Assembly (NCBI GenBank): GCA_937903135.1
Contig: CALDAH010000028.1
Span: 2,474-66,473 of the forward strand
Source: an uncultured Alphaproteobacteria bacterium
GTDB taxonomy: Bacteria; Pseudomonadota; Alphaproteobacteria; Rs-D84
Length of the DNA stretch: 64,000 nucleotides
Direction of reading: 5' to 3'
Position 1 is the first letter of the stretch. Every line of letters begins with the position of its first letter. The position numbers and the translations under genes were made by a program. The notes beneath the pieces were generated by a model that ran no database searches, was not told the DNA's origin, and saw only the letters and a list, made by a program, of their open reading frames with translations. Positions 3 to 62,504 of the stretch are shown piece after piece.

Positions 3-308
3 ACATTTAATCCGTATGACGAAGATGAACGCTTATTCGCGTTTGCCGGAATCGGATACCCGCGAAAGTTTTTTAATTCTTTGAAAAATGTTGTCGGAAC
101 AAAAATCTTTGCCGATCACTATCAATATACCAATCAGGACTTAGAACGTTTGTTTGCAATGGCGGCAAAGAAAAAAGCCCAGTTGATTACAACAGAAAAA
201 GACTGGGTAAGGTTACCCGAATGCGTACGGGATAAAATAAAATATGCACGATTAGATATGACAATTGATGAACGGTTTTTTGACTGGCTGGGGGATAAAT
301 TAAAATGA
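3..308 (+). CDS. lpxK: tetraacyldisaccharide 4'-kinase LpxK, C-terminal fragment (5' end upstream of window)
   Basis: The frame is open from the window edge: ...LFAFAGIGYPRKFFNSL...FADHYQYTNQDL...ITTEKDWVRLP, a typical LpxK C-terminal pattern. The stop overlaps the lpxC start (ATGA at 305-308). Confidence 0.7.
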   Translation, partial: TFNPYDEDERLFAFAGIGYPRKFFNSLKNVVGTKIFADHYQYTNQDLERLFAMAAKKKAQLITTEKDWVRLPECVRDKIKYARLDMTIDERFFDWLGDKLK

Positions 309-1240
309 CAACATTAAAAAAAGAAGTCGTAATTCGTGGACACGGTATTCATTCCGGCGCACCGGTTAAGGTCGTTATTCGCCCGAGTAATTCATCCGGT
401 ATATTTTTTCGCCGTACGGATATAAAGGGTTCTATGCCGATTGCGGCGTTATTTAATAACGTCGGGGAAACCAAAATGCGTAATACCACAATCGGGGATT
501 TAAATTCCGCCCATGTTCAGACGGTTGAACATCTTATGGCGGCGCTGTTTATCGCGGGGATTGATAGCGCGATGATTGATATATCCGGGCCCGAGACACC
601 AATACTTGACGGCAGTGCTGCGGAATTTTTGGCGGCGTTTGTTAATGCTGGTGTAACGTCCGGGGCGATGAAACGCATTATTGTAAAACGCGAGGTTATT
701 GCCCATTCGCGTGAGATTTTGCGTACACTATCACCGTGGGTGCGAATTCGTTTATGGTTCTTTAATTTAATATCAGGCCGTCGCGGGAATGGATTCGTAA
801 GATTAAAACCTAATCACGGGAAATCATTAGATATCACCGCAACATTAATATACCCAGAGAAAATTATCGGAGAGCAGACATACCGCTATTCATTTAACGG
901 GTCAAAGAAATCTATTAATGATTTTACAACGAATATTGCACGGGCGCGAACATTTGGAAAATATTCGGAATGGGAATACCTAAAGGCGCATGGAATGGGT
1001 CGCGGGGCAAATGAAAATAATGTTATCGCGTTGAATAATACGGGCGACGGGACATTGAATCCTGTGATATGGCCCGATGAATTTGTTCGGCATAAAATAA
1101 TTGATGCAATCGGTGATATGTTTACCAGCGGCGGCTGGATTATCGGTGACTTAGAATCATTTAAGGGCAGTCATGCTTTAAATAATCTGGTTCTTAAAAA
1201 GTTATTTAGCAATGCTGAAAATTATGATATAGTTGAATAA
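305..1240 (+). CDS. lpxC: UDP-3-O-acyl-N-acetylglucosamine deacetylase
   Basis: 311 aa. Motifs GHGIHSG, TTIGD, VQTVEHLMAAL, PILDGSA, ARTFG, HKIIDAIGDM and GSHALNN are colinear with LpxC. There is an extra hydrophobic segment of about 20 aa (ILRTLSPWVRIRLWFFNLISG) relative to E. coli LpxC. Confidence 0.9.
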   Translation: MTTLKKEVVIRGHGIHSGAPVKVVIRPSNSSGIFFRRTDIKGSMPIAALFNNVGETKMRNTTIGDLNSAHVQTVEHLMAALFIAGIDSAMIDISGPETPILDGSAAEFLAAFVNAGVTSGAMKRIIVKREVIAHSREILRTLSPWVRIRLWFFNLISGRRGNGFVRLKPNHGKSLDITATLIYPEKIIGEQTYRYSFNGSKKSINDFTTNIARARTFGKYSEWEYLKAHGMGRGANENNVIALNNTGDGTLNPVIWPDEFVRHKIIDAIGDMFTSGGWIIGDLESFKGSHALNNLVLKKLFSNAENYDIVE

Positions 1241-1807: not shown

Positions 1808-3070
1808 TTGGCAAATCAGGTAATATCCGTTAATAGAAAAAAATACGCGGTTGGGTTGTTTTGGCAGCCGCTGGGCACGCGTAAGGTCGGGCGAAATTAT
1901 GCCCGAAATTTAGCACGCAGCGTTGATAGAAAATTAAATCTGTTTACCGAATACCGTGCCATGGTTGGTCTGGGGTCGCGTCGCGCCGGACATCGTGCCG
2001 GAATGATGGCCGCCGCCGCCGAGGTTATGGAAGCATTCCCGGAATATTCATCTTTTTTAGCGGTATTTCGCATTGATCTTGGTTATTTTTTAGTAGCTGT
2101 CCGTAATGGAATAATCCTTGAGGATAAGATTTTTGAATCCGAGGCCGATGCCCGTTCTGAATACGTGCGGTTATCTGAAATCCCGGACTGGGGGGCATTT
2201 ATTGCGCCGGGGGCATGGTCAATGCCGCGTGCGGTTGAACGTTCGTTGCCGGATTTAATATCACGAAATGCCCGGGCGATGCTGCATTCGGTTAGTCGTT
2301 TTCGCGCCGGTTTGTTTTCGTTGATATTAATCGGTATATTTTTATTTATAATGTTTATGATTTTTCGTGACCCGATAATGCAATTGGTATCCCCACGGCC
2401 ACGACCGGCCCAGATTGATCCCGTATTAGCCGAGGAATATAAACGTCAGATAATTGAAAAAAACAAAGAGCTTGACGAACGGTTTAATATTCAAAAAACG
2501 CCGCCACCGCCACCGTTGGTTATGCCGTATGATAACCTGCCGTCGCCCGCTGCCCGGGCAGAGCTGTGCTATCAGGCGATCGGTTTTTTAATGCAGCCGA
2601 TTACCGGTTGGCATCAGGTAATGGCCGAATGCAATGAAACGCACGCCGTGGCCCAGTTTCGTCGCGATTTCGGAACATTGGGGGATTTTTATAACATTGC
2701 AACGCAGCTAATGCCCGGGACATTCGTCCAAGAACGCGGCGAGGACGAGATTATGGCACGCGCCGCGCTGCCGGCGTTACCCGCCGAACCGTCCCTGGAT
2801 GAACGCGATGCCGAAACTCTGTTGCGCGATGTAACGTCCGCATTTCAGGGCCTGGATACACCGATTAACGCCCAGATTGTCGTAGACGTTTTGTCAAACG
2901 GGGTGGATACGGCCCAGCTGAATATCGTAGAGATATCGGCTGATTCAAAGCTTGCACCGATGCAGTTTATGAAAATATTTGATGAATTCGGTGGCGTGTA
3001 TATGACGCGTTGTGTATGGAATACTGCGGGTCGCATATGGAACTATGAGGTGATTATCTATGCTAAATAA
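1808..3070 (+). CDS. type IVb pilus accessory protein, PilO (R64/PilO2)-like
   Basis: 420 aa with a TTG start. The N-terminus KKYAVGLFWQPL resembles the PilO/PilO2 pilin-accessory family. It has a central TM helix (LFSLILIGIFLFIMFMIF), and its position is colinear with R64 pilO-pilP-pilQ-pilR. Confidence 0.55.
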   Translation: MANQVISVNRKKYAVGLFWQPLGTRKVGRNYARNLARSVDRKLNLFTEYRAMVGLGSRRAGHRAGMMAAAAEVMEAFPEYSSFLAVFRIDLGYFLVAVRNGIILEDKIFESEADARSEYVRLSEIPDWGAFIAPGAWSMPRAVERSLPDLISRNARAMLHSVSRFRAGLFSLILIGIFLFIMFMIFRDPIMQLVSPRPRPAQIDPVLAEEYKRQIIEKNKELDERFNIQKTPPPPPLVMPYDNLPSPAARAELCYQAIGFLMQPITGWHQVMAECNETHAVAQFRRDFGTLGDFYNIATQLMPGTFVQERGEDEIMARAALPALPAEPSLDERDAETLLRDVTSAFQGLDTPINAQIVVDVLSNGVDTAQLNIVEISADSKLAPMQFMKIFDEFGGVYMTRCVWNTAGRIWNYEVIIYAK

Positions 3071-3734
3071 AACATATTTTATTTTATTGGTTTTTATTAT
3101 GGCGTTTTCGTCAGCGCGAACATTCCCGGCATTTGCCGATGAATCCGGTGCAATGGACGCCGAGATGGAAGAGGTTTCCGCCGATGCCGTTGCCGCATAT
3201 AATGTTAACGGGTCATTATTTCAACAGATTACCGATCTGGAACAGGAAAAGGTTTTAATGCAGCTGGAAAAGGAACGCGCCCAGCTGGATCTGGAACTGG
3301 ATCGCTTGGCGGCTGAAAAAATAAAACTGCATATGGAGATAGATACACTATCGGGCCGTGCCGAGCAGCAGCAACAAGAGCTTGAGACTGAAAAAGCACG
3401 ACTGGAGGCCGAGGCAGCACGACTAGCGCGCGAGAAGGAAAGTTTAGCCGAGCAGAGTGCGGCCGATGCCAAGCGCGTATATTCCGCACCCGCCCAAAGT
3501 ACCGCAGCGGCTGATATAAACCTGGCCGATAGATATAAATTGATTAATGTAGTCGGCGTTGGATCACAGCTGCAGGCGACCGTTACAGATTTAAATACAG
3601 GACAAAATAAACGTTTATCCGTAGGTAAAATCCTGGATGATTTTAGTGTAAAATCTATATCCTTAGATGATGGCGTTGTATTTATTAATAATAAGGGTGA
3701 AACGCAGGTATTGAATATCGGCGGGGCACGATAG
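3060..3734 (+). CDS. type IVb pilus biogenesis protein, PilP-like
   Basis: 224 aa with a signal peptide, a long E/Q/A-rich coiled coil and a C-terminal beta domain (YKLINVVGVG...VTDLNTGQNKRLSVGKILDDFSVKSISLDDGVVF) like PilP/GspC. It overlaps the upstream gene by 11 nt. Confidence 0.5.
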   Translation: MLNKTYFILLVFIMAFSSARTFPAFADESGAMDAEMEEVSADAVAAYNVNGSLFQQITDLEQEKVLMQLEKERAQLDLELDRLAAEKIKLHMEIDTLSGRAEQQQQELETEKARLEAEAARLAREKESLAEQSAADAKRVYSAPAQSTAAADINLADRYKLINVVGVGSQLQATVTDLNTGQNKRLSVGKILDDFSVKSISLDDGVVFINNKGETQVLNIGGAR

Positions 3735-3760
3735 TATAACGGTTTTAGGTGCGATTATAA

Positions 3761-5398
3761 ATGAACGATAAAGAAAAAGAAGTTTTAAGCAACGATACAG
3801 TCGAACGTCGCCCATCTGTTCCGACGGGGTTGGAAAATGCCGAAAGCAAAGATATTGTTGATTTTTTATTCGCTAACGGTAATCGGTTGCTGACCGCAAC
3901 CGGTGCCGAGATGGAACTGCCAAAGGATACGCAGGGGCTGATTGCATATTTTTCCGGCGGCGAGATTATTATATCACGAACACACCGTTATGACGGTCGT
4001 GTTTTAGCGTTTTTAGATTTGTTAGAAAAACGCGGACGGCCAATGCGCCGACCGTTTTATTCGGATTTAGGGCTGGTATCTAATATATATAAATTTTATG
4101 AATCGCGGGTCGGCGGATCTAATCGTTCACGATTGGATTACGATAACCAAATGCAAAAGGATTTTGTTGATATTATCGCCAAGGCCGCCGCACAGAAAGT
4201 ATCTGATATTCATATAGAGGTCGCAGATCAGACCACAATTTATTTCCGTATTGACGGCAGTATGCAACCGGTATTGGAATATAATTCCGGCTGGGGGGAA
4301 TCATTCGTTCGCGCGGCATTTGCATCCGCCGATATGTCAAATGCGAACTATGCCCAAAATGAATACCAGTCTGCACAAAAAGATGGTCGTACGCCCCTGC
4401 GCGGGACAAAGGATTTATATCTGCCCGCCGGGATTTTAAGTATTCGTATGCAGTTTAATCCGATCGCATTCGGCAGTCGTTATGTCGTTATGCGATTGTT
4501 GTATGATAACCCGTCCGAGGGGATTAAAACAGAACAGGAATTCGGTGAATACGAACAGCGTTTAATGATGCGCATGCGGGCATTCCCGACGGGACTGGTT
4601 ATTGTCGCCGGGCCGACGAGTTCTGGGAAATCAACAACGCTGGTTCGTAATATGTCGTTAATGCTAAAGGAACGTCATTACGAGATAAATATGATCACGG
4701 TGGAAAACCCCGTTGAGCAAAAAATTTTCGGCGCGCATCAGATGCCTGTTATTAATACAACCAGCGAAGAACAGCGCGACGAGGAATATACCGAGGCATT
4801 GGCCGCCGCGCTGCGCAGTGACCCTGATACTTTAATGGTCGGGGAAATTCGTACGCTGGCCGCCGCCCAATTAACCGTACGCGGTGCGTTATCCGGTCAT
4901 AACGTATGGACCACGCTGCATGCAAATTCAGCACTGGCCGCATTAACCCGTTTACTGGATATGGGGATAGAGGCATTTAAGCTAAAAGAAGAAACGCTAA
5001 TGCGTGGATTAATATCAATGCGGTTGTTTAAAAAGCTATGTCCGTATTGTCGTGAACGCTTAATTGATCATCCTGAAAACCCGGCGTATAATCGCGTCTT
5101 GGACGCGTTCGGTGAAATCGGCCTGCGCCAGGTATATATTCGCGGCGCCGGTTGTAACGAATGTAATGGGACGGGGACACTGGGCCGAATTAAAGCGGGC
5201 GAGATTATAATTACAAACAGTGAATTTTTAGGCCTGGCGCTATCTGGCGATACGGATGGTGCGGTAAAATACTGGCTGGAGGAAATGGATGGCCGAACGT
5301 TAAAAGAGGCCGCAATGGAATTAATGCTGCGTGGAATAATCGGTGTTGATGAATTAGAACGCTGGGTGGGATTACTGGACCGGCCGGGGGTATATTAA
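3761..5398 (+). CDS. GspE/PilB-family secretion ATPase (R64 PilQ-like)
   Basis: 545 aa with Walker A GPTSSGKSTT, Asp box/Walker B DPDTLMVGEIR, His box GHNVWTTLHAN, and a tetracysteine motif CPYC...CNEC. Confidence 0.85.
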   Translation: MNDKEKEVLSNDTVERRPSVPTGLENAESKDIVDFLFANGNRLLTATGAEMELPKDTQGLIAYFSGGEIIISRTHRYDGRVLAFLDLLEKRGRPMRRPFYSDLGLVSNIYKFYESRVGGSNRSRLDYDNQMQKDFVDIIAKAAAQKVSDIHIEVADQTTIYFRIDGSMQPVLEYNSGWGESFVRAAFASADMSNANYAQNEYQSAQKDGRTPLRGTKDLYLPAGILSIRMQFNPIAFGSRYVVMRLLYDNPSEGIKTEQEFGEYEQRLMMRMRAFPTGLVIVAGPTSSGKSTTLVRNMSLMLKERHYEINMITVENPVEQKIFGAHQMPVINTTSEEQRDEEYTEALAAALRSDPDTLMVGEIRTLAAAQLTVRGALSGHNVWTTLHANSALAALTRLLDMGIEAFKLKEETLMRGLISMRLFKKLCPYCRERLIDHPENPAYNRVLDAFGEIGLRQVYIRGAGCNECNGTGTLGRIKAGEIIITNSEFLGLALSGDTDGAVKYWLEEMDGRTLKEAAMELMLRGIIGVDELERWVGLLDRPGVY

Positions 5399-5399
5399 T

Positions 5400-6473
5400 A
5401 TGGAACGGTTGGAAAAATTATATGCCAAACTGGTATTCCGTTTAAATACCGAAAAACGTATGGCGACCGCACGAAAATTGGCATCGTTACTGCGAAATGA
5501 TTTTACATTAATGGACGCCCTGGGACGATTAGAGATGATCGAGTCTAAAAACGGTAAGCGTCCGAATGAACCGTTTGCAATTGTTATGCGCGAATGGCAA
5601 AAAAACCTTGAACGCGGGATGAGCTTTTCTGATGCGACGCGTGGCTGGGTCCCGCCCGATGAAACATTGTTGGTAACGTCGGGGAATCTTTCTAATTTAG
5701 TTGTCGCATTGGAAAACGTCGGGCATGTTGTTGATGGAATGCAGCGTATTCATCGCGCAATGCGCGGGGCCGTTGCGTACCCGATGTTTTTGCTGGCGTT
5801 AACGTTCGGGATTATTATTATGGTTGGTCTGTATCTGGTCCCGCCCCTGGCAGAGGTTGCCGGCAACGATATGGTATGGCGCGGTATGGCGCGGTCGTTA
5901 ATATGGCTATCGGGGGTCGCAACGCATTACTGGTTCGCATTTATAATAGGGTTTGCATTGGTCGCCGGAATAATATGGATGTCAATGGCGAATTGGTCCG
6001 GGTGGCTGCGTTCCCGATTTGATAGTTTCCCGCCATGGAGTATTTATAGGATTAATATTTCGGTCGGGTGGCTAATGTCTTTGGCGGCGATGGTATCGGC
6101 AGGTATTACCGTCCCGAATGCGATACGTATGCTGGCGGATAATGCAAATCGGTATCTGGCGTCTATATTGGAACGGGTTCTGCATTTTATTGCGAACGGT
6201 GATAATTTAGGGGTGGCGTTAAATAACGCCGATCGTAATTTCCCCGATCCAGAGATCATAGGGGATTTAACAATTTACGCTGATATGAACGGATTTGATG
6301 CAAACCTTAAACATATTGCAAACGATTATCTGGAAGAATCCGTCCGCAGGGTAGATGCGATATCTAATGCATTAAACAGCGTCGGGATTTTATTAGTATC
6401 GGCAATTATTGCCTGGGTTGTACTGGGTACATTCCAGATGCAAGATCAGATTACAGCCGCGTTATCGTATTAA
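5400..6473 (+). CDS. GspF/PilC-family inner-membrane platform protein (R64 PilR-like)
   Basis: 357 aa. It starts 2 nt after the ATPase stop, has three hydrophobic TM segments and a GspF-like layout, and its position is colinear with R64 pilR. Confidence 0.65.
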   Translation: MERLEKLYAKLVFRLNTEKRMATARKLASLLRNDFTLMDALGRLEMIESKNGKRPNEPFAIVMREWQKNLERGMSFSDATRGWVPPDETLLVTSGNLSNLVVALENVGHVVDGMQRIHRAMRGAVAYPMFLLALTFGIIIMVGLYLVPPLAEVAGNDMVWRGMARSLIWLSGVATHYWFAFIIGFALVAGIIWMSMANWSGWLRSRFDSFPPWSIYRINISVGWLMSLAAMVSAGITVPNAIRMLADNANRYLASILERVLHFIANGDNLGVALNNADRNFPDPEIIGDLTIYADMNGFDANLKHIANDYLEESVRRVDAISNALNSVGILLVSAIIAWVVLGTFQMQDQITAALSY

Positions 6474-24010: not shown

Positions 24011-24415
24011 ATGATTAAAAACGAATATATTTTACCGAATTTAGATGCCACGCATAAATTCGCACGTGATTTTGCCCGGCAATTAACCGCGCCCGTGGTC
24101 GTTGCACTGCACGGGGATTTAGGGATGGGAAAATCCGAAATCGCACGAACAATAATTCAGACGCTACGCGGCGACGATACTGTCGTCCCGAGTCCAACGT
24201 TTACAATCGTTCAGAGCTATGATGGGATTTCGCACTTTGATCTATATCGTATATCGGACGTGTCGGAATTAACGGAAATCGGTCTGCGGCATGCGATGGA
24301 TAATGATATTACATTAATAGAATGGCCTGATATCGCCGCGGATATTTTACCGAATGATACTATTCACCTTTATATCACCGAATATGGGGACGGGCGAAAA
24401 ATTGTTATAAAATAA
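24011..24415 (+). CDS. tsaE: tRNA t6A37 biosynthesis ATPase TsaE
   Basis: 134 aa: GDLGMGKSEIAR (P-loop), VPSPTFTIVQSY, HFDLYR, LIEWP. Confidence 0.85.
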   Translation: MIKNEYILPNLDATHKFARDFARQLTAPVVVALHGDLGMGKSEIARTIIQTLRGDDTVVPSPTFTIVQSYDGISHFDLYRISDVSELTEIGLRHAMDNDITLIEWPDIAADILPNDTIHLYITEYGDGRKIVIK

Positions 24416-24633
24416 TAATCCGTCATCGCGCAAAGAAGTAATAGAGCCGCCTGGGAAATCGTCCCTGTTGAATATATTTGCCGGCGAATGCATAGTGTTT
24501 ATGGTTATTTAATTATAACCGGCGCGAATGTAAATTCGCAAATGCGAACACTGCACATGCGGGCTTTTATAGCCCCGAACCCACATCCCTATGATTTGGT
24601 TTATCGCTAAATCTTAAAAGCATTGTTTGTATA

Positions 24634-24662
24634 GAAAATCCCGGGTAGATCCCGGGATTTTT
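24634..24662. terminator. bidirectional Rho-independent terminator
   Basis: ATCCCGGG-TAGAT-CCCGGGAT, flanked by GAAAA and TTTTT, between convergent tsaE and ftsA-rpe. Confidence 0.7.
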
Positions 24663-26427
24663 AATTCTGTGTTTTTTTTAATAAACTTTCCACCGCCAAT
24701 GGGAAATCCGAACTTTTCGCCAGATATGAACCGCTGACCAATAAATCCGCGCCCGCATCCCAGCACAATGCTGCTGTTTTATCATTTATTCCGCCGTCAA
24801 TTGTTATTGTAAACTTTAACCCGTATTTTTTTCGCGTCGCGTTTAATACCGATATTTTATGCAGGCATTCCGGATGAAATGCCTGACCGGCCGCGCCGGG
24901 GGTAACGGTCATAACCATAACCTCGTCAATGTCACGTAAAATCGGTTTTAATATCGCGACCGATGAATCCGGATTAAGTGCCACGCCCGCCCGACGACCG
25001 GCCGCCCGAATATTCCGCAGTGCCGCCCGCAGACCGGATGTATTCGTCGAGAGGATTACCGTATCTGCCCCGGCCGCGACGGCGTCCGCCGCCCATACGG
25101 TCGGGCTTTCCGTCATTAAATGGACATGCAGATGATCCGACGTATGGGCGCGAATATATTTTAGCTCGTCAATATTGCCGGCGATTTTATCAACATAAAA
25201 ACCATCCATTATATCTACGTGAATCATTGATATTCCGCCCGATTTAAATAATGAATACGTTGAATCACTTTTCATGTCAAAGCATAATGTGCTGGGTAAA
25301 ATCGGTATAAAACGTGGACGTTTTTTAGGTTTGGACCGAAAAATTGTTTTTAATCGGCCAAAACGCGTCGCCCAGCGCATATATGCATCACGGTGTGCCT
25401 GTTCGTTTTTCCATATTAATTCCGATAACCCGCGCAGTGCCGTGTCTGTGTGCATGTTTTCGGCGATAATCCCAAATGCATTTTCAAAGAAATCTACTGC
25501 GCCTTCTATCTCGGCCCCGCCGCCGGTTAATATAATCTTGGTAGGTTTGTATTTGGTAAATGCATCCATTGCTGCGTTTTTAATATCCGCGATAATATCT
25601 ACCATATGCGGGGTTACGATTTCATTAATATCCGCACGGGAAAAACCGTATGCCGTATCCGCCGGGGTAAAACGATCCATATCCTTTGGGATCAGACTGG
25701 CGACGGCGCATTTTATTCGTTCCGCATCGTCAAAATCAATACTTAGTTTTTCAGATATATCCAACGTTATATCCGTTCCCGCATGTGCCGTACGGTAATG
25801 CCATACCGGGCCGCGATCCGTCCATATTGACGCAGACGAAAACTGTGCCCCGATATCAATAAACATAACGTTTTCCTTGGGCCGGCGCAGCAGTGAGTTT
25901 TGTAAAAATTGTGGATCATAGAATGCATCTGACTGAATATGGGCACGACGCAGGATTGAATATAATTCATTTAGGCGTTCGGTTGAATAAAATATCGCAC
26001 CGAATGCAGATATTAGCTGACGATCGGTATGCCCGATCGGCGATAGCATATTCCGGGCACTGGGGGTATCGTATCGCAGTGGGATTATATGCATCGGATA
26101 AAAACCCGTCGGTGCGGTTATCTGGGATATCTGGTTTTGAATATCGGCCGGGCCGATTTTATGTTCCCCGTTCCATAGCGTACTTTTCGCGGCCATTTCA
26201 AACAACGATGGGCCAAAGTTCCCCGTGATATAGGCCGAGTCAAAATGCGTCCCGATCTGATGTTCCAGTTCGTCGACCACGGCGTTTATTGCCGCGACGG
26301 TATCAAAGCTATTAAACGAATATATTGCAGATTTATCAATTCGTGCCGACCGTATACGGTGCGCAATTCCGCGAACGCCACTGGATCCGATGTCTAAGCA
26401 TAAAAAAGATGAATCAAATAGGTTCAT
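24661..26427 (-). CDS. FtsA-like actin-fold cell-division protein fused in frame to a ribulose-phosphate 3-epimerase (Rpe) domain
   Basis: 588-aa single ORF. The N-terminal ~350 aa carry FtsA motifs: LCLDIGSSGVRG, MFIDIGAQFSS, GTDITLDISEKLSIDFDDAERIK, IILTGGGAEIEG. A basic amphipathic linker (RWATRFGRLKTIFRSKPKKRPRF) follows. The last ~220 aa are a full Rpe barrel: ILPSTLCFD, IHVDIMDG, HVHLM, MTVTPGAAGQAF, TIDGGIN, VSGSY. The junction is at about 25320-25335. Immediately downstream of ftsQ. Confidence 0.75.
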   Translation of the reverse strand: MNLFDSSFLCLDIGSSGVRGIAHRIRSARIDKSAIYSFNSFDTVAAINAVVDELEHQIGTHFDSAYITGNFGPSLFEMAAKSTLWNGEHKIGPADIQNQISQITAPTGFYPMHIIPLRYDTPSARNMLSPIGHTDRQLISAFGAIFYSTERLNELYSILRRAHIQSDAFYDPQFLQNSLLRRPKENVMFIDIGAQFSSASIWTDRGPVWHYRTAHAGTDITLDISEKLSIDFDDAERIKCAVASLIPKDMDRFTPADTAYGFSRADINEIVTPHMVDIIADIKNAAMDAFTKYKPTKIILTGGGAEIEGAVDFFENAFGIIAENMHTDTALRGLSELIWKNEQAHRDAYMRWATRFGRLKTIFRSKPKKRPRFIPILPSTLCFDMKSDSTYSLFKSGGISMIHVDIMDGFYVDKIAGNIDELKYIRAHTSDHLHVHLMTESPTVWAADAVAAGADTVILSTNTSGLRAALRNIRAAGRRAGVALNPDSSVAILKPILRDIDEVMVMTVTPGAAGQAFHPECLHKISVLNATRKKYGLKFTITIDGGINDKTAALCWDAGADLLVSGSYLAKSSDFPLAVESLLKKTQN

Positions 26428-26437
26428 ATGGCGGTTT

Positions 26438-27118
26438 TTATTTAACTAAAATTCGGGCGTGGTCACGCATATCTATGATTTTAATATCCTTAGATAAAAT
26501 GTGATGTTGGTTATTTAATATAATTAGTGATCCGATTGCAGCCGTCGGGTTTTCTTCGGGCAATAATACCGTAATGCCGTCGTTTGTTATTATATTCCAG
26601 CGACGATTTTCAATCCATTCCATATAGTTAATATTGCCTACCATATTATGGGCGGCATTTGTAATATCGGTTATATCATTTGGGATCGGGCCGTGAAATA
26701 CCACCGATGCCGGATCGCGTTCAGTCATTGGTTTATTTACAATTGTCCCGTCGGCCGATAGCGGGAAATAGCTGTCCCCGTCGGACCATTGGGCAACGGC
26801 GCGGTATAATTTAACCTTTACCGCGATATTACCATTTGGTAATCGGCGAACAGATGACTGTTTAACCCCCGGGACGCCCGCGACGCGTGCATTCATCGCA
26901 TCGAGGTCAACAGAATATGTATGTGTTCCGGGCGGTAATGCGACCGCGATTTGTAATGCGGACATATCTTTGTCGTTTTGATCGGCGGATATAGATATAT
27001 TCCGAACACGTGCAACCGTACCGTGGCCAAGTCCCGTCATAATAACGCGTGTTGAAAAATATATCGCCAAAATTATGGCAATAACAAAACAGAGCCAAAA
27101 CCATATAGAACGTTTCAT
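26438..27118 (-). CDS. ftsQ: cell division protein FtsQ
   Basis: 226 aa with an N-terminal TM anchor and POTRA-like LPPGTHTYSVDLDAMNARVAGVPGVKQSSVRRLPNGNIAVKVKLY. Located directly upstream of the ftsA-like gene. Confidence 0.75.
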   Translation of the reverse strand: MKRSIWFWLCFVIAIILAIYFSTRVIMTGLGHGTVARVRNISISADQNDKDMSALQIAVALPPGTHTYSVDLDAMNARVAGVPGVKQSSVRRLPNGNIAVKVKLYRAVAQWSDGDSYFPLSADGTIVNKPMTERDPASVVFHGPIPNDITDITNAAHNMVGNINYMEWIENRRWNIITNDGITVLLPEENPTAAIGSLIILNNQHHILSKDIKIIDMRDHARILVK

Positions 27119-27157: not shown

Positions 27158-27538
27158 TTACATCGCACGGAGCAGATAACCGCGTCGGAACATGCATTTA
27201 CGGTATGAACCGACCGATTTAGACGTTGTATTTCGCGGCACAGACATTAGCGAACGCTGGCCGACGTCTTTGTACTCGTTTGACTGAAATGTTACCCACA
27301 GCCCGTCCCAGTCGGGCATTAAACCACTCTGGTTCGGGGCCAATAGTTTCGCAATACGCGAACGCGGGATATACGACGGCTTGGTTATTCCCAGGCACGC
27401 CTTGTGATCGCGGACGAATTGTTCGGTTGTAACCGCTTCGTTTTCCCAGTTAAGGACGGTCGCGTTATCAATACTGCCGCGATTAGGCGATGCACATGCA
27501 GATAATATTAAAAAAATCCCAAGGTATTTTATTCTCAT
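27158..27538 (-). CDS. lipoprotein, hypothetical
   Basis: MRIKYLGIFLILSAC has a lipobox. 126 aa. No family recognised. Confidence 0.5.
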   Translation of the reverse strand: MRIKYLGIFLILSACASPNRGSIDNATVLNWENEAVTTEQFVRDHKACLGITKPSYIPRSRIAKLLAPNQSGLMPDWDGLWVTFQSNEYKDVGQRSLMSVPRNTTSKSVGSYRKCMFRRGYLLRAM

Positions 27539-27613
27539 TACATGCATTATAATTTAATTGCCTTTATGGGGCAATAGTTTTTATAATAGGAAAAAGGGAC
27601 AAAGGAAAGAGGC

Positions 27614-27940
27614 ATGGCAATAACAGTTCAGAATTTTATTAAACTGGCCAACTATTATAACCAAACGGCGATGATTATGTCGGCGATTTGCGTAGAAAAA
27701 GGCGGCGTTGCCATTGATAATTACGTCGGGCGTTTCTTTGCGGCCGATGTGTTGGAATATATCGTGGAATACGGCCGACGGTTAACAGATAATCGCAATG
27801 AAAGTATCCCACCGGAAATCGCGGATTTAATTAAAAGATTCGCACAACAGTTCGAACACGTAAAACATCTAACGACGCCAATGCAAAAACCGTTCTATGA
27901 AATGACACTGGAAGAGTTTGAAAAGGTAATGAATATATAA
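27614..27940 (+). CDS. hypothetical protein
   Basis: 108-aa ORF with AAAGGAAAGAGG upstream. No motif recognised. Confidence 0.5.
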   Translation: MAITVQNFIKLANYYNQTAMIMSAICVEKGGVAIDNYVGRFFAADVLEYIVEYGRRLTDNRNESIPPEIADLIKRFAQQFEHVKHLTTPMQKPFYEMTLEEFEKVMNI

Positions 27941-27969
27941 CCATATGGTTTTATAACAAAGGGGACAGT

Positions 27970-29304
27970 ATGACTATTTTTAATTTATATCACAAAATCA
28001 TCGTGGTTATATCTCTGTTCATGGTATGCGGGTGCGCGTCACAGCAATCTAATTCCCCGCAATACGATACTGTAACGGTCATAGATAACCTGGTAATTGA
28101 TGAAAACGCTGTTCCGATTTTCCCGAAAAAGGCCGCACTGACGACCGATACCGCACGTCGGTTTTCAATTGATCTGCCAAAACGATGCCGCGTGGATTGG
28201 AATAACCAAAGTGTCGTATCCGTCGTCCCAGAGGAAAAGATTGAAATCGTTCGTTTATCCGTTGGTGACCCAATGCCCGCGTTAAATGTATCTGATTATG
28301 AATTCAAAGAACTAACCGTTCGCCAGGCATTGGATAAATTACTGGACGGGACAGATATATCCGTAATAGAAGACGAAGATTTATATGAAAAAATTACGGG
28401 AACAATTACATCCGGGCAGCTATCCGATGCCGTTGAATTAATGGCAAAGATGGGCCGCGTTTATTATTCATACGATGCCGCCGCCGGCGAGATTCATCTC
28501 TCGCATCGTGCGAAATGGATGATAAAGATGCCAAAGGATGAAACGATTATCATGGCACTGTTGGATGCAATGCACGGGGCGGATATGCGTAATCTTTTGG
28601 TTAACTGGCAGGATAAAACCGTTGTATTCGAAGGGAATTATCAAACCGAACGCGAGGTCGCAAAAATAATATCAGATATATCATCTAAGAAGTATATGAT
28701 TGCATGGGATATTGATGTTTATCGCGTATACCCGCGTACGGATAACCCGATCGTTTGGATGAACCTGCTGCCGGCATTCGGGGATAAAAATGTAAAGATG
28801 TCCATCCCGGGCGTCGTCGGACGTGCGCTGGTGGTAAGCCCAGAGATTAATACAAAAACATTACAAGAATTTCTGCACCAGCAGGCAAATGTTGTCCTGA
28901 TCTCGCAGGGGACATTTGCGATTCCGAACGGATGGCAGTCAAGATTTGATATCGGCCAATGCGGCAAAGAAGAACGCCTGGAAACCGATTTAATAATCGG
29001 GGCAACGGGGACGTACGGTAACTTTGGCGGGTATAAGAAAATTGATGCGAAAATTGTTCTGCGTACAACCGGCGGTGAACTATCGTCGTTTAATATCCCG
29101 TCAAGTGTTGGTGATAATTATGTAATTATCGGTATCCCAACGCATTCATTTGTAACAACGCCGGAAACACTGGTTTCCCCGTTCGCGGAACTGGTTGTAT
29201 TTATGTCACCACGCGTGATATCAATCGTTGATCCGGCAGATGTACCGACAAATGCTTTAACCCCACTGGCCGGGGACGCGCTGCGCGCATTTTTAAGTGA
29301 ATAA
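27970..29304 (+). CDS. secretin-like outer-membrane lipoprotein (possible type IVb PilN/BfpB-class secretin)
   Basis: 444 aa. Lipobox (LFMVCGCAS). N-domain-like ELTVRQALDKLLDGTDISVI. The C-terminal pattern ...IVLRTTGGELSSFNIPSSVGDNYVIIGIP...ELVVFMSPRVI resembles the end of secretin domains. The match is divergent, so the call is tentative. Confidence 0.4.
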   Translation: MTIFNLYHKIIVVISLFMVCGCASQQSNSPQYDTVTVIDNLVIDENAVPIFPKKAALTTDTARRFSIDLPKRCRVDWNNQSVVSVVPEEKIEIVRLSVGDPMPALNVSDYEFKELTVRQALDKLLDGTDISVIEDEDLYEKITGTITSGQLSDAVELMAKMGRVYYSYDAAAGEIHLSHRAKWMIKMPKDETIIMALLDAMHGADMRNLLVNWQDKTVVFEGNYQTEREVAKIISDISSKKYMIAWDIDVYRVYPRTDNPIVWMNLLPAFGDKNVKMSIPGVVGRALVVSPEINTKTLQEFLHQQANVVLISQGTFAIPNGWQSRFDIGQCGKEERLETDLIIGATGTYGNFGGYKKIDAKIVLRTTGGELSSFNIPSSVGDNYVIIGIPTHSFVTTPETLVSPFAELVVFMSPRVISIVDPADVPTNALTPLAGDALRAFLSE

Positions 29305-60679: not shown

Positions 60680-60703
60680 ACCCGCGTTATGCGGGTGTTT
60701 TTT
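60680..60703. terminator. Rho-independent terminator
   Basis: ACCCGC-GTTAT-GCGGGT followed by GTTTTTT. It abuts the convergent 60702 gene stop. Confidence 0.75.
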
Positions 60704-62504
60704 AGCGTGCGTTGCAGGTTTTATGCTGCAGAAATCTAATCTTGGCCATTATGCGTTCCCGACCGGGCAGATCTGACGTTATGCCCCGGGATATAAATTC
60801 GGTTGCGGCGTTAATCTCGGCCCTGGTGTATTTATGTAAAACGCGGCACAGCGCTTCCCAGTCTTGGTATATAACGATATTTGTAATCTTGCGAATATAT
60901 GGTTTTTCAAACATCGTGTGATTAATCCGTATTGCGCCCATGTCAATTATTGTATTGCCGCGGATATTTTCTATGTTTAAATCAAATGGTCGGGCGGGCT
61001 TAAATTTTTCAAACGGTGATCCGGGTATCGTTGATTTTCGCACATCGCCATTAATATACGGGTATATTATATATCGTTCACCGCGTTGATTGCTAATCCC
61101 GGCCGTAGATACGGGGCGAAATCTGATTTTCCCGTAAAACTTTTTCCCCGATAATAAAAAAGAATTTTGTATCTCGGTATTATGACACCATGCATCGGAT
61201 AACGCGTATGTATTACTGCTGTGATAGATTTTCCAAACATACCCATTCCCGGTGCCGATATTAATAATAAATGTTTTGCTAAATTGCCCCGCCCCTAGTA
61301 ATTCAATCGCTGATGGCTGTTTGGTTATTCGGGTCAGTGCGTCGGATAGTTCTGTTAATGCGGGGCATGGCGTATCGGCGTTTACGAATGAAAATATATT
61401 CGCATATGGCGAATAGAGTTTTCGTGTCGCGGCGACAAATGCGCTGTGCAGACGACGTGTTGCGTCGCCGCGCATATGCAGCGGGATCATTTCCAGCCAT
61501 TGATATGGGAAACATCCCGGATTTTTATATCGGCCGGTGATTGCTATGCCGTTCATTTTATAATCCGAGATAGGTTTATGTCGTATGTATTTATTTATCG
61601 CCGCCACCGGCGCATCCGCGTTCGGACGTTCGGATATAACCTGGGACAGCTGGGGCAGGGTTATATCACATATCTCGCACGTGGCTGTATGCGAGTTATA
61701 TTTTTGAATATAATTATCAATTTTATAGCCGAGTTTTTCAATCTCTGGGATAAATGAGTATAGCGCGCGACGTTCGGCGCTGGTTATGCTATCGTTGCAT
61801 ATAAATGAATATCTAAGTGATTCCAGTATCACGCCTTTGCTGATATGCGATATTTGTTTTTTATTTATTATATATTTAAAATTTTGCTCGGCTTCGTTCC
61901 TCTTGGCCGCGTTAATGGCGGAATTTAGCTTCTGGCTAACCGATATCTGGTCGTTATATTTTATTACATACGACGGGGTATTTTTTATTCCATGCTTGTT
62001 AAATATCAACGGCAGTACTGAAATAACCGATACGTTAAATATCCGGCGTTTTTGTATTTCAAAATAATAAACACCGTTATATATATTTACCGTGTAAACG
62101 CGAATGGCGTTATTCCCCGGATGTATAACTTTTTTTAGATTCTGACCAACGCCGGGCGAATGGGCGGTAATGTGATAATTTACCGGAATCTGTAAAATTT
62201 CAATATTCGGACACCCGCTGAACGCATAGCGGTATACATATTTTAATTTTTTCCCCATGCATAATATACGCAGCCCGGGGTTGTTGCAAAATACGGGCGA
62301 TTTTATATCGGTTACAGAATCCGGTATATATAACTCGGTCAGCCCGGGCAGATTATTCCCGACATTTTTTTCTATTGTCCGTACGCCATGCGGAATACGT
62401 AAAGCGCCGATCGGATCTAAATCCGATGCATCTGCCGATAAAAGGGTGTCACCTATTATTTTCATTTTATTTATGCTTGCACAGAGATGCGTTTTTGTCA
62501 ACAC
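60702..62504 (-). CDS. leucine-rich-repeat (BspA/LRR_5-type) protein with a C-terminal protein-kinase-like domain
   Basis: 600 aa. The N-terminus has LRR_5-like units (IPHGVRTIEKNVGNNLPGLTELYIPDSVTDIKSPVFCNNPGLRILCMGKKLKYVYRYAFSGCPNIEILQIP). The C-terminus has LGAGQFSKTF (Gly-rich loop), YVWKIY (candidate Lys), FDLNIENI (HRD-like) and IIDMG (DFG-like). The kinase call is an inference from motif spacing. Confidence 0.55.
   Translation of the reverse strand: MLTKTHLCASINKMKIIGDTLLSADASDLDPIGALRIPHGVRTIEKNVGNNLPGLTELYIPDSVTDIKSPVFCNNPGLRILCMGKKLKYVYRYAFSGCPNIEILQIPVNYHITAHSPGVGQNLKKVIHPGNNAIRVYTVNIYNGVYYFEIQKRRIFNVSVISVLPLIFNKHGIKNTPSYVIKYNDQISVSQKLNSAINAAKRNEAEQNFKYIINKKQISHISKGVILESLRYSFICNDSITSAERRALYSFIPEIEKLGYKIDNYIQKYNSHTATCEICDITLPQLSQVISERPNADAPVAAINKYIRHKPISDYKMNGIAITGRYKNPGCFPYQWLEMIPLHMRGDATRRLHSAFVAATRKLYSPYANIFSFVNADTPCPALTELSDALTRITKQPSAIELLGAGQFSKTFIINIGTGNGYVWKIYHSSNTYALSDAWCHNTEIQNSFLLSGKKFYGKIRFRPVSTAGISNQRGERYIIYPYINGDVRKSTIPGSPFEKFKPARPFDLNIENIRGNTIIDMGAIRINHTMFEKPYIRKITNIVIYQDWEALCRVLHKYTRAEINAATEFISRGITSDLPGRERIMAKIRFLQHKTCNAR

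Follow-up and report, generated by a model that had tools for sequence, protein, structure and literature searches.

The ftsA-rpe locus

We analysed a 64,000-nucleotide stretch of DNA (contig CALDAH010000028.1 of assembly GCA_937903135.1; hereafter, the window) from an uncultured alphaproteobacterium of the lineage Rs-D84. Immediately after the cell division gene ftsQ, we identified a gene in which FtsA is joined in frame to ribulose-phosphate 3-epimerase (Rpe). An earlier description of the window, made from the letters and their translations without database searches (hereafter, the sequence-only reading), had reported a single uninterrupted open reading frame (ORF) of 588 codons at this position without stating its strand. 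We recovered this frame on the minus strand, with an ATG start and no internal stops. The predicted product is a single polypeptide of about 65 kDa. The parts of the gene and its upstream neighbor are as follows.

24661..26427, minus strand: ftsA::rpe fusion gene; 588 codons plus stop, ATG start, single ORF
25402..26427, minus strand: FtsA domain, residues 1-342; divergent actin/ASKHA fold with a 1C (SHS2-type) insertion
25306..25401, minus strand: linker, residues 343-374; amphipathic helix (modelled at 343-363) followed by the polybasic, disordered RSKPKKRPR
24664..25305, minus strand: Rpe (β/α)8 barrel, residues 375-588; best match in the PDB is 2FLI
25219-25221 (H403), 25213-25215 (D405), 25120-25122 (H436) and 24796-24798 (D544), minus strand: catalytic and metal residues of Rpe, placed by alignment to 2FLI
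26438..27118, minus strand: ftsQ, with Pfam domains POTRA_1 and FtsQ_DivIB_C; 10-nt gap to the fusion gene

The ftsQ and fusion genes are probably co-transcribed. On the opposite strand within the fusion gene (25274-25798, plus strand) there is an antisense ORF of 174 amino acids with a low-complexity translation, which is most likely spurious.

The FtsA domain

Residues 1-342 are an FtsA orthologue, based on the position after ftsQ, a fold that includes the 1C insertion where actin has subdomain 1B, and the existence of intermediate fused homologues. The closest known counterpart is FtsA, for example that of Escherichia coli, Vibrio maritimus (PDB 7q6d/7q6f) and Thermotoga maritima (1e4f/4a2a) (PMC7613929, PMC5508204). 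The Pfam FtsA family (PF14450) was matched at residues 189-320 with 37.9 bits (cut-off 31.8). All PDB sequence matches of residues 1-365 are to FtsA, the best being 7q6f (E 8e-9), and this alignment takes in the 1C hairpin motif, with the stretch HIIPLRYD...SPIG aligned to FtsA 1C. We compared an AlphaFold (AF2) model of the fusion protein (mean predicted local distance difference test, pLDDT, 82.5) to known structures using Foldseek, and found target-normalised TM-scores of 0.65-0.71 for FtsA structures versus 0.53-0.56 for PilM. Both halves of the protein are recognisable but divergent by their Pfam and NCBIfam scores, the FtsA half more so than the Rpe half.

More canonical sequences occur among the fused relatives. 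The relative P0143 matches FtsA over its full length (E 4e-29) and bridges the divergent sequences of Candidatus Enterousia (described below) to canonical FtsA. The Pfam domain SHS2_FTSA was matched in P0128, P0141, P0143 and P0152. We also considered PilM, MreB and a sugar-kinase-type ASKHA domain with a metabolic link to Rpe as identities of the N-terminal domain. These were ruled out by the FtsA-only PDB matches, the best-matching folds, the SHS2 domain and the synteny with ftsQ and ftsI.

In canonical FtsA, subdomain 2B binds the C-terminal peptide of FtsZ, and the protein polymerises with ATP. The region corresponding to subdomain 2B (residues 244-266) has the motif SLIPKEMDRFTPADTAYxFSRxD, which is near-invariant within Enterousia and is modelled with low confidence. 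This motif may mark a conserved partner interface, because it is the canonical 2B subdomain that binds the FtsZ tail.

The linker and the junction

The sequence-only reading had noted a basic amphipathic segment where FtsA normally ends with its membrane-targeting helix, and our analysis bears this out. The AF2 model has a helix at residues 343-363, pLDDT values below 50 at 364-370, and a disordered, Lys/Arg-rich segment at 364-374. The linker has a net charge of +9 and a peak hydrophobic moment of 0.58, compared with 0.62 for the membrane-targeting helix of E. coli FtsA. Across 22 diverse family members the net charge is positive in every case (+2 to +15), and the amphipathic peak is 0.5-0.8 in most. 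The simplest reading, presumed from these sequence properties, is that FtsA's own membrane-targeting tail is now internal and, as the linker, would keep the Rpe barrel close to the membrane. Conservation is lowest in the linker (44% identity within Enterousia). The relative placement of the two domains is uncertain in the AF2 model (predicted TM-score, pTM, 0.56).

The sequence-only reading also saw no start codon backed by a Shine-Dalgarno sequence at the domain junction, and this also holds. Across residues 330-400, the only in-frame ATG, GTG or TTG codons are those of M350 and M385. Neither is preceded by a Shine-Dalgarno-like motif and neither Met is conserved among relatives. Initiation at M385 would delete β1 of the barrel and the conserved Ser379.

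The Rpe domain

Residues 375-588 form an entire Rpe barrel in which the metal and catalytic residues are preserved. The full triosephosphate isomerase (TIM) barrel of the sequence-only reading was confirmed by a match to Ribul_P_3_epim (PF00834) at residues 390-569 (E 2e-42) and by structural comparison. The best PDB match is Rpe of Streptococcus pyogenes (2FLI; E 3.5e-43, 38% identity), on which the model superimposes with a Foldseek TM-score of 0.91 and a root-mean-square deviation of 1.6 Å over 211 columns. Among NCBIfam models, the score exceeds the cut-off for the Rpe subfamily NF004076 (176.8 bits versus 165) and falls under that for the Rpe equivalog TIGR01163 (149.7 bits versus 212.6). 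Residues H403, D405, H436 and D544 align with 2FLI residues H34, D36, H67 and D176, the established Zn ligands and catalytic acid/base residues.

The full catalytic set is kept in 20 of the 22 diverse family members, as are M438 and the DGG and SGS phosphate-binding motifs, which argues for a working enzyme. The suggestion that the Rpe domain is degenerate finds no support for this genome. Within Enterousia, identity to the window protein is 80% for the Rpe domain and 66% for the FtsA domain. We found no second Rpe-like sequence in the window or in 80 related loci (described below), each of which has one. Free Rpe enzymes are dimers or hexamers, and the 2FLI entry contains 12 chains.

The proteobacterial Rpe structures in the PDB match less well (E 1e-21 to 1e-22) than the streptococcal one, and the Rpe domain of P0143 is likewise closer to streptococcal than to proteobacterial PDB enzymes. 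A foreign origin of the Rpe domain is therefore possible on the basis of these sequence matches.

Independent assemblies and distribution

We identified Logan contigs from three independent sequencing runs of three studies (X1, X2 and X4; word depth 8.5-23; X1 is labelled mouse gut metagenome) that span positions 24400-26700. They match the window with 0 mismatches and 0 gaps. A protein search with the window protein returned 820 matching clusters. The 120 matches listed are all 588-595 amino acids long, have both Pfam domains, are 67-74% identical to the window protein apart from one that is 99% identical, and stem from many unrelated assemblies. When 22 of the listed relatives are aligned, neither the two domains nor the linker go out of frame.

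Among the genomes scanned, one per GTDB species, 255 encode a relative of this Rpe. We fetched the loci of 80 of these (L001-L080), and all 80 carry the full fusion, from residue 1 to about residue 585. Nearly all carriers are labelled Candidatus Enterousia or uncultured Alphaproteobacteria, with the guts of humans, rodents, birds and ruminants as their sources, and they include a closed circular metagenome-assembled genome (OZ007020.1) of 958,618 bp. Two of the fetched loci (L060 and L076) are ftsQ-fusion contigs of the Enterousia type in bins labelled Bacteroides fragilis and Muribaculaceae, and look mis-binned.

The fusion is characteristic of an entire lineage, the gut order Rs-D84 (Candidatus Enterousia and relatives) with its reduced genomes. 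Members of this order have genomes of <1 Mb with ~90% coding density, a partner-dependent lifestyle, and MreB, RodA and MrdA (PMC12306168). Metabolic reconstruction indicates a non-oxidative pentose-phosphate pathway without transaldolase (PMC12306168). FtsA, FtsZ and the fusion are unmentioned in the text of that paper. The sequence-only reading knew of no described fusion of FtsA to a pentose-phosphate enzyme, and our full-text literature searches also found no description of an FtsA-Rpe fusion.

Age and diversity of the family

We searched the FtsA part alone exhaustively against 1.84 billion representative proteins and identified 46 proteins at E ≤ 1e-10. The full-length close relatives are all fused (542-623 amino acids), down to about 26% identity. 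Next come ordinary FtsA proteins of 400-440 amino acids, with about 25% identity and E values of 1e-13 to 1e-7. Where named, these are annotated as FtsA, and they come from several phyla. No intact unfused close relative was identified in this search. Pfam recognises an Rpe domain in all full-length members tested; at the N-terminus, all of them except P0131 have an FtsA-type match (PF14450 and/or SHS2_FTSA).

Two short proteins were considered as unfused relatives and rejected. P0127 (430 amino acids) is a partial record, and its cluster mate has 592 amino acids. P0123, a 329-residue "FtsA" encoded at locus L087, ends at a single in-frame TGA, after which the frame continues into Rpe, so that gene calls split the fused frame into "FtsA" and "Rpe". 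The locus is the ENA contig NODE_82158 (2146 bp, coverage 2.15x), and the TGA lies at the position of window residue ~327. It is probably a sequencing error or a recent nonsense mutation and not an ancestral split. Recoding of this TGA is unlikely, because other members have Ala, Thr or Ser there. About 20 representative clusters of the family provide no clean case of separate orthologous genes, which the sequence-only reading had named as the finding that would speak against a fusion.

The gene ftsQ is directly upstream of the fusion in 86 of 86 related loci, and L081, which represents the most canonical lineage, has the arrangement ftsI-ftsQ-fusion-rpmB. Given the exhaustive search and the ftsQ synteny at all loci, we conclude from sequence comparison that the fusion is old and that this FtsA subfamily is known only in fused form.

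Two very AT-rich sister lineages depart from the pattern of catalytic conservation. In P0134 (L085/L086) and P0131 (L088), the His and Asp ligands and the phosphate loop of Rpe are lost, and P0134 also lacks the nucleotide-binding aspartates and ATP motifs of FtsA. The G+C content of these loci is 25.6% (P0134) and 23.6% (P0131), and that of the genes is about 19%. Both proteins retain a full-length Rpe domain and the same synteny. That a dead domain of ~210 residues survives in genomes undergoing strong erosion hints at a further role besides catalysis. The idea that the barrel is a structural module gains some support from these two lineages.

The missing ftsZ neighbor

The sequence-only reading had pointed out that ftsZ is not adjacent to the fusion gene, that a convergent tsaE comes next, and that lpxC lies elsewhere, beside lpxK. 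Pfam annotation and tblastn agree with it on each point. The features concerned are as follows.

24011..24415, plus strand: tsaE (Pfam TsaE, E 2.9e-32); convergent with, and downstream of, the fusion gene
24634..24662, no strand assigned: hairpin from a terminator scan, with a perfect 12-bp stem (GAAAATCCCGGG / CCCGGGATTTTT) and T/A runs on both sides
305..1240, strand not stated: lpxC, from window ORF annotation
6-290, strand not stated: C-terminal fragment of lpxK, preceding lpxC

The tsaE gene sits where ftsZ usually succeeds ftsA. The hairpin lies between tsaE and the fusion gene and overlaps the stop codon of the latter; it is likely a bidirectional intrinsic terminator common to both genes.

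A tblastn search with E. coli FtsZ found no match to ftsZ in the 64 kb window or in the 80 related loci (L001-L080) with 10 kb flanks, and Pfam annotation of the larger window ORFs revealed neither ftsZ nor a recognisable FtsZ regulator. Both of its usual places, behind ftsA and ahead of lpxC, lack ftsZ, as do about 1.5 Mb of related loci around this site. In divergent loci that were fetched separately, the genes downstream of the fusion are tsaE, rpmB or argS, and never ftsZ. The division and cell wall (dcw) cluster is fragmented and rearranged, with ftsZ and lpxC no longer adjacent.

Proposed function of the fusion protein and alternative explanations

We favor, with moderate confidence, a bifunctional, membrane-tethered FtsA-Rpe protein that would serve both as the FtsA of the divisome and as the epimerase of the cell, with the Rpe domain also having a structural part. 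The FtsA part would still be an actin-like membrane anchor and divisome recruiter, and the amphipathic, polybasic FtsA tail, turned internal linker, would tether the protein to the inner membrane. The Rpe part would be an active ribulose-5-phosphate/xylulose-5-phosphate epimerase, probably the only one in the cell. One step of the residual non-oxidative pentose-phosphate pathway would thereby be placed at the membrane or divisome. A need for Rpe fits the pathway published for Rs-D84 (PMC12306168), and we count this in favor of the bifunctional protein.

The Rpe domain is probably also an oligomerisation or scaffold module for FtsA, a reasonable if unproven proposal, because free Rpe is oligomeric and the domain is kept where catalysis is lost. 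The function of FtsA depends on its oligomeric state (PMC7613929, PMC5508204, PMC11323482).

Several observations weigh against this explanation. The FtsA part is divergent, as its score with the NCBIfam model TIGR01174 (70.4 bits) is far under the equivalog cut-off of 175.85. The sequence-only reading had assigned all FtsA motifs to residues 1 to about 350; the domain is genuine FtsA, but the phosphate-2 motif is degenerate (DIGAQFSS versus DxGGGTT). The Mg/ATP-binding aspartates of FtsA are lost in several lineages of the family, so ATP-dependent polymerisation is not assured. In a subgroup with short linkers (P0149, P0152 and P0168), the amphipathic helix is weak or absent. The altered substrate loop of Rpe noted in the sequence-only reading is real: the MDGxFVPN loop after β2 is MDGFYVDK in the window protein, the usual FVPN (here YVD[KR]) is replaced across the fused family, and no fused member keeps the Pro-Asn pair. 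In Enterousia, PGFGGQ has also become PGAAGQ. Because of these changes, the substrate specificity may differ from ribulose 5-phosphate. The model of P0134 has a mean pLDDT of 90.5 and eight β-strands, but the alignment on which it is based included active homologues, so that retention of the barrel is partly assumed. Finally, two cDNA-labelled faecal runs provided only three short contigs, and none of these crosses the junction.

A possible, though rather unlikely, alternative is a neutral "Rosetta-stone" fusion, in which genome reduction removed the DNA between ftsA and a neighboring rpe, and the two halves keep separate jobs while the link itself has no function. This would be in keeping with the small, densely coding genomes of Rs-D84 (<1 Mb, about 90% coding density; PMC12306168), the fragmented and rearranged dcw cluster, the poor conservation of the linker and the uncertain inter-domain geometry. 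However, the fusion has outlasted a divergence of the FtsA domain to 26% identity, and we identified a clean fission in none of about 20 representative clusters. A purely enzymatic passenger also fails to explain why the domain is kept in the two lineages in which catalysis has been lost.

A further proposal goes beyond the bifunctional protein. Rs-D84 may lack FtsZ altogether, and FtsA with its covalent, oligomeric Rpe barrel may replace FtsZ as the organiser of membrane FtsA filaments. We regard this as improbable. If true, a proteobacterium that contains peptidoglycan would have a divisome based on FtsA and independent of FtsZ.

It is quite improbable that the gene gives rise to two proteins, with internal initiation or proteolysis in the linker freeing Rpe and an FtsA that ends in its membrane helix. 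The disordered, Lys/Arg-rich stretch at 364-374 would suit such cleavage, a Met stands immediately ahead of the PS motif in about half of the relatives (IPIMPSTL), and gene calling at L087 places the start of a separate Rpe ORF at this Met. In the window protein, however, the residue at this position is Leu, which provides no start codon. The in-frame M350 and M385 have the shortcomings given above, and one in-frame TGA, on a contig covered 2.15x, accounts for the split at L087.

We consider it very improbable that the Rpe-like domains of all lineages are pseudoenzymes, serving only as structural or oligomerisation appendages in cells whose real Rpe is encoded elsewhere. The family-wide loss of the FVPN loop, the altered PGFGGQ loop, the TIGR01163 score (150 versus a cut-off of 213) and the two lineages that clearly lack catalytic residues could be read in this way. 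These are countered by the retention of H403, D405, H436, D544, M438, DGG and SGS in 20 of 22 diverse members, by the status of the Rpe domain as the most conserved part of the protein, by the NF004076 score and by the lack of a second Rpe-like sequence in the window or the 80 loci.

An assembly or sequencing artefact, in which two genes were joined through a missing stop or an indel and which the sequence-only reading had left as an option, is ruled out for practical purposes: we found nothing in its favor, the sequence is the same in three independent assemblies, and the fused frame recurs in all 80 fetched of the 255 species genomes and in hundreds of metagenomic contigs.

Other genes in the window

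Between ftsQ and a LolC/MacB-like ABC system there are three conserved genes (27158-29304; 129, 108 and 444 amino acids) without Pfam matches or an assigned function. The synteny of this block extends to most of the Enterousia loci and to the AT-rich lineages. We also identified a cluster resembling type IV pilus and type II secretion systems (1808-6473), which includes a PilO-like protein of 420 amino acids, a T2SSE ATPase and a T2SSF platform protein. Such a cluster stands out in a genome of <1 Mb that is thought to depend on partner cells. A 600-residue protein with BspA-type leucine-rich repeats (LRR_5) is encoded at 60702-62504 (minus strand), and is a candidate surface or adhesion protein.

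Comparison with known systems

The domain architecture is new, although it is built from two known families, neither of which represents a new fold. The N-terminal part resembles FtsA in its position after ftsQ, its ASKHA fold with the 1C/SHS2 insertion, the basic amphipathic segment after the core, an NPxG-type hairpin motif (here SPIG) and the adenosine motif LTGGGAEIEG. Unlike FtsA, it is about 40 residues shorter, scores under the curated threshold and has a degenerate phosphate-2 loop; its membrane helix is internal and not C-terminal, a 214-residue enzyme stands behind it, and ftsZ is not next to the gene. A free C-terminal membrane helix and the pairing with ftsZ are among the most constant features of FtsA, which belongs to the core of the divisome. 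The internal membrane segment and the lost ftsA-ftsZ pairing are not described in the literature that we searched. The C-terminal part shares with 2FLI and NF004076 the (β/α)8 barrel, the His/Asp/His/Asp metal site, the Met cushion and the DGG and SGS motifs. It differs from 2FLI in having FtsA at its N-terminus and in the FVPN to YVD[KR] and PGFGGQ to PGAAGQ changes.

Metabolic enzymes that moonlight in division control include UgtP of Bacillus subtilis and OpgH of E. coli. In Caulobacter, KidO, GdhZ and CitA are metabolic enzymes that act in this way in the control of the cell cycle or division (PMC7083601). The fusion resembles such enzymes in that a fold of central metabolism is physically tied to the machinery of division, a tie that in some cases does not depend on catalysis. 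However, the moonlighting enzymes are separate proteins that act on FtsZ or cell-cycle regulators, whereas here the enzyme is covalently attached to FtsA.

Implications

Public records name the fusion protein simply "ribulose-phosphate 3-epimerase". Comparative studies of division genes and of the pentose-phosphate pathway in Rs-D84 can be misled by this, because annotation shows an Rpe and apparently no FtsA. The fusion also provides a convenient molecular signature by which to recognise the lineage. Throughout an order of gut bacteria that are widespread in humans and animals, an enzyme is attached behind the membrane segment of FtsA, with ftsZ not adjacent. This illustrates the remodelling of the divisome under genome reduction. 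If the link is functional, it would be a natural experiment in which central carbon metabolism, or oligomerisation driven by an enzyme, is coupled to cytokinesis.

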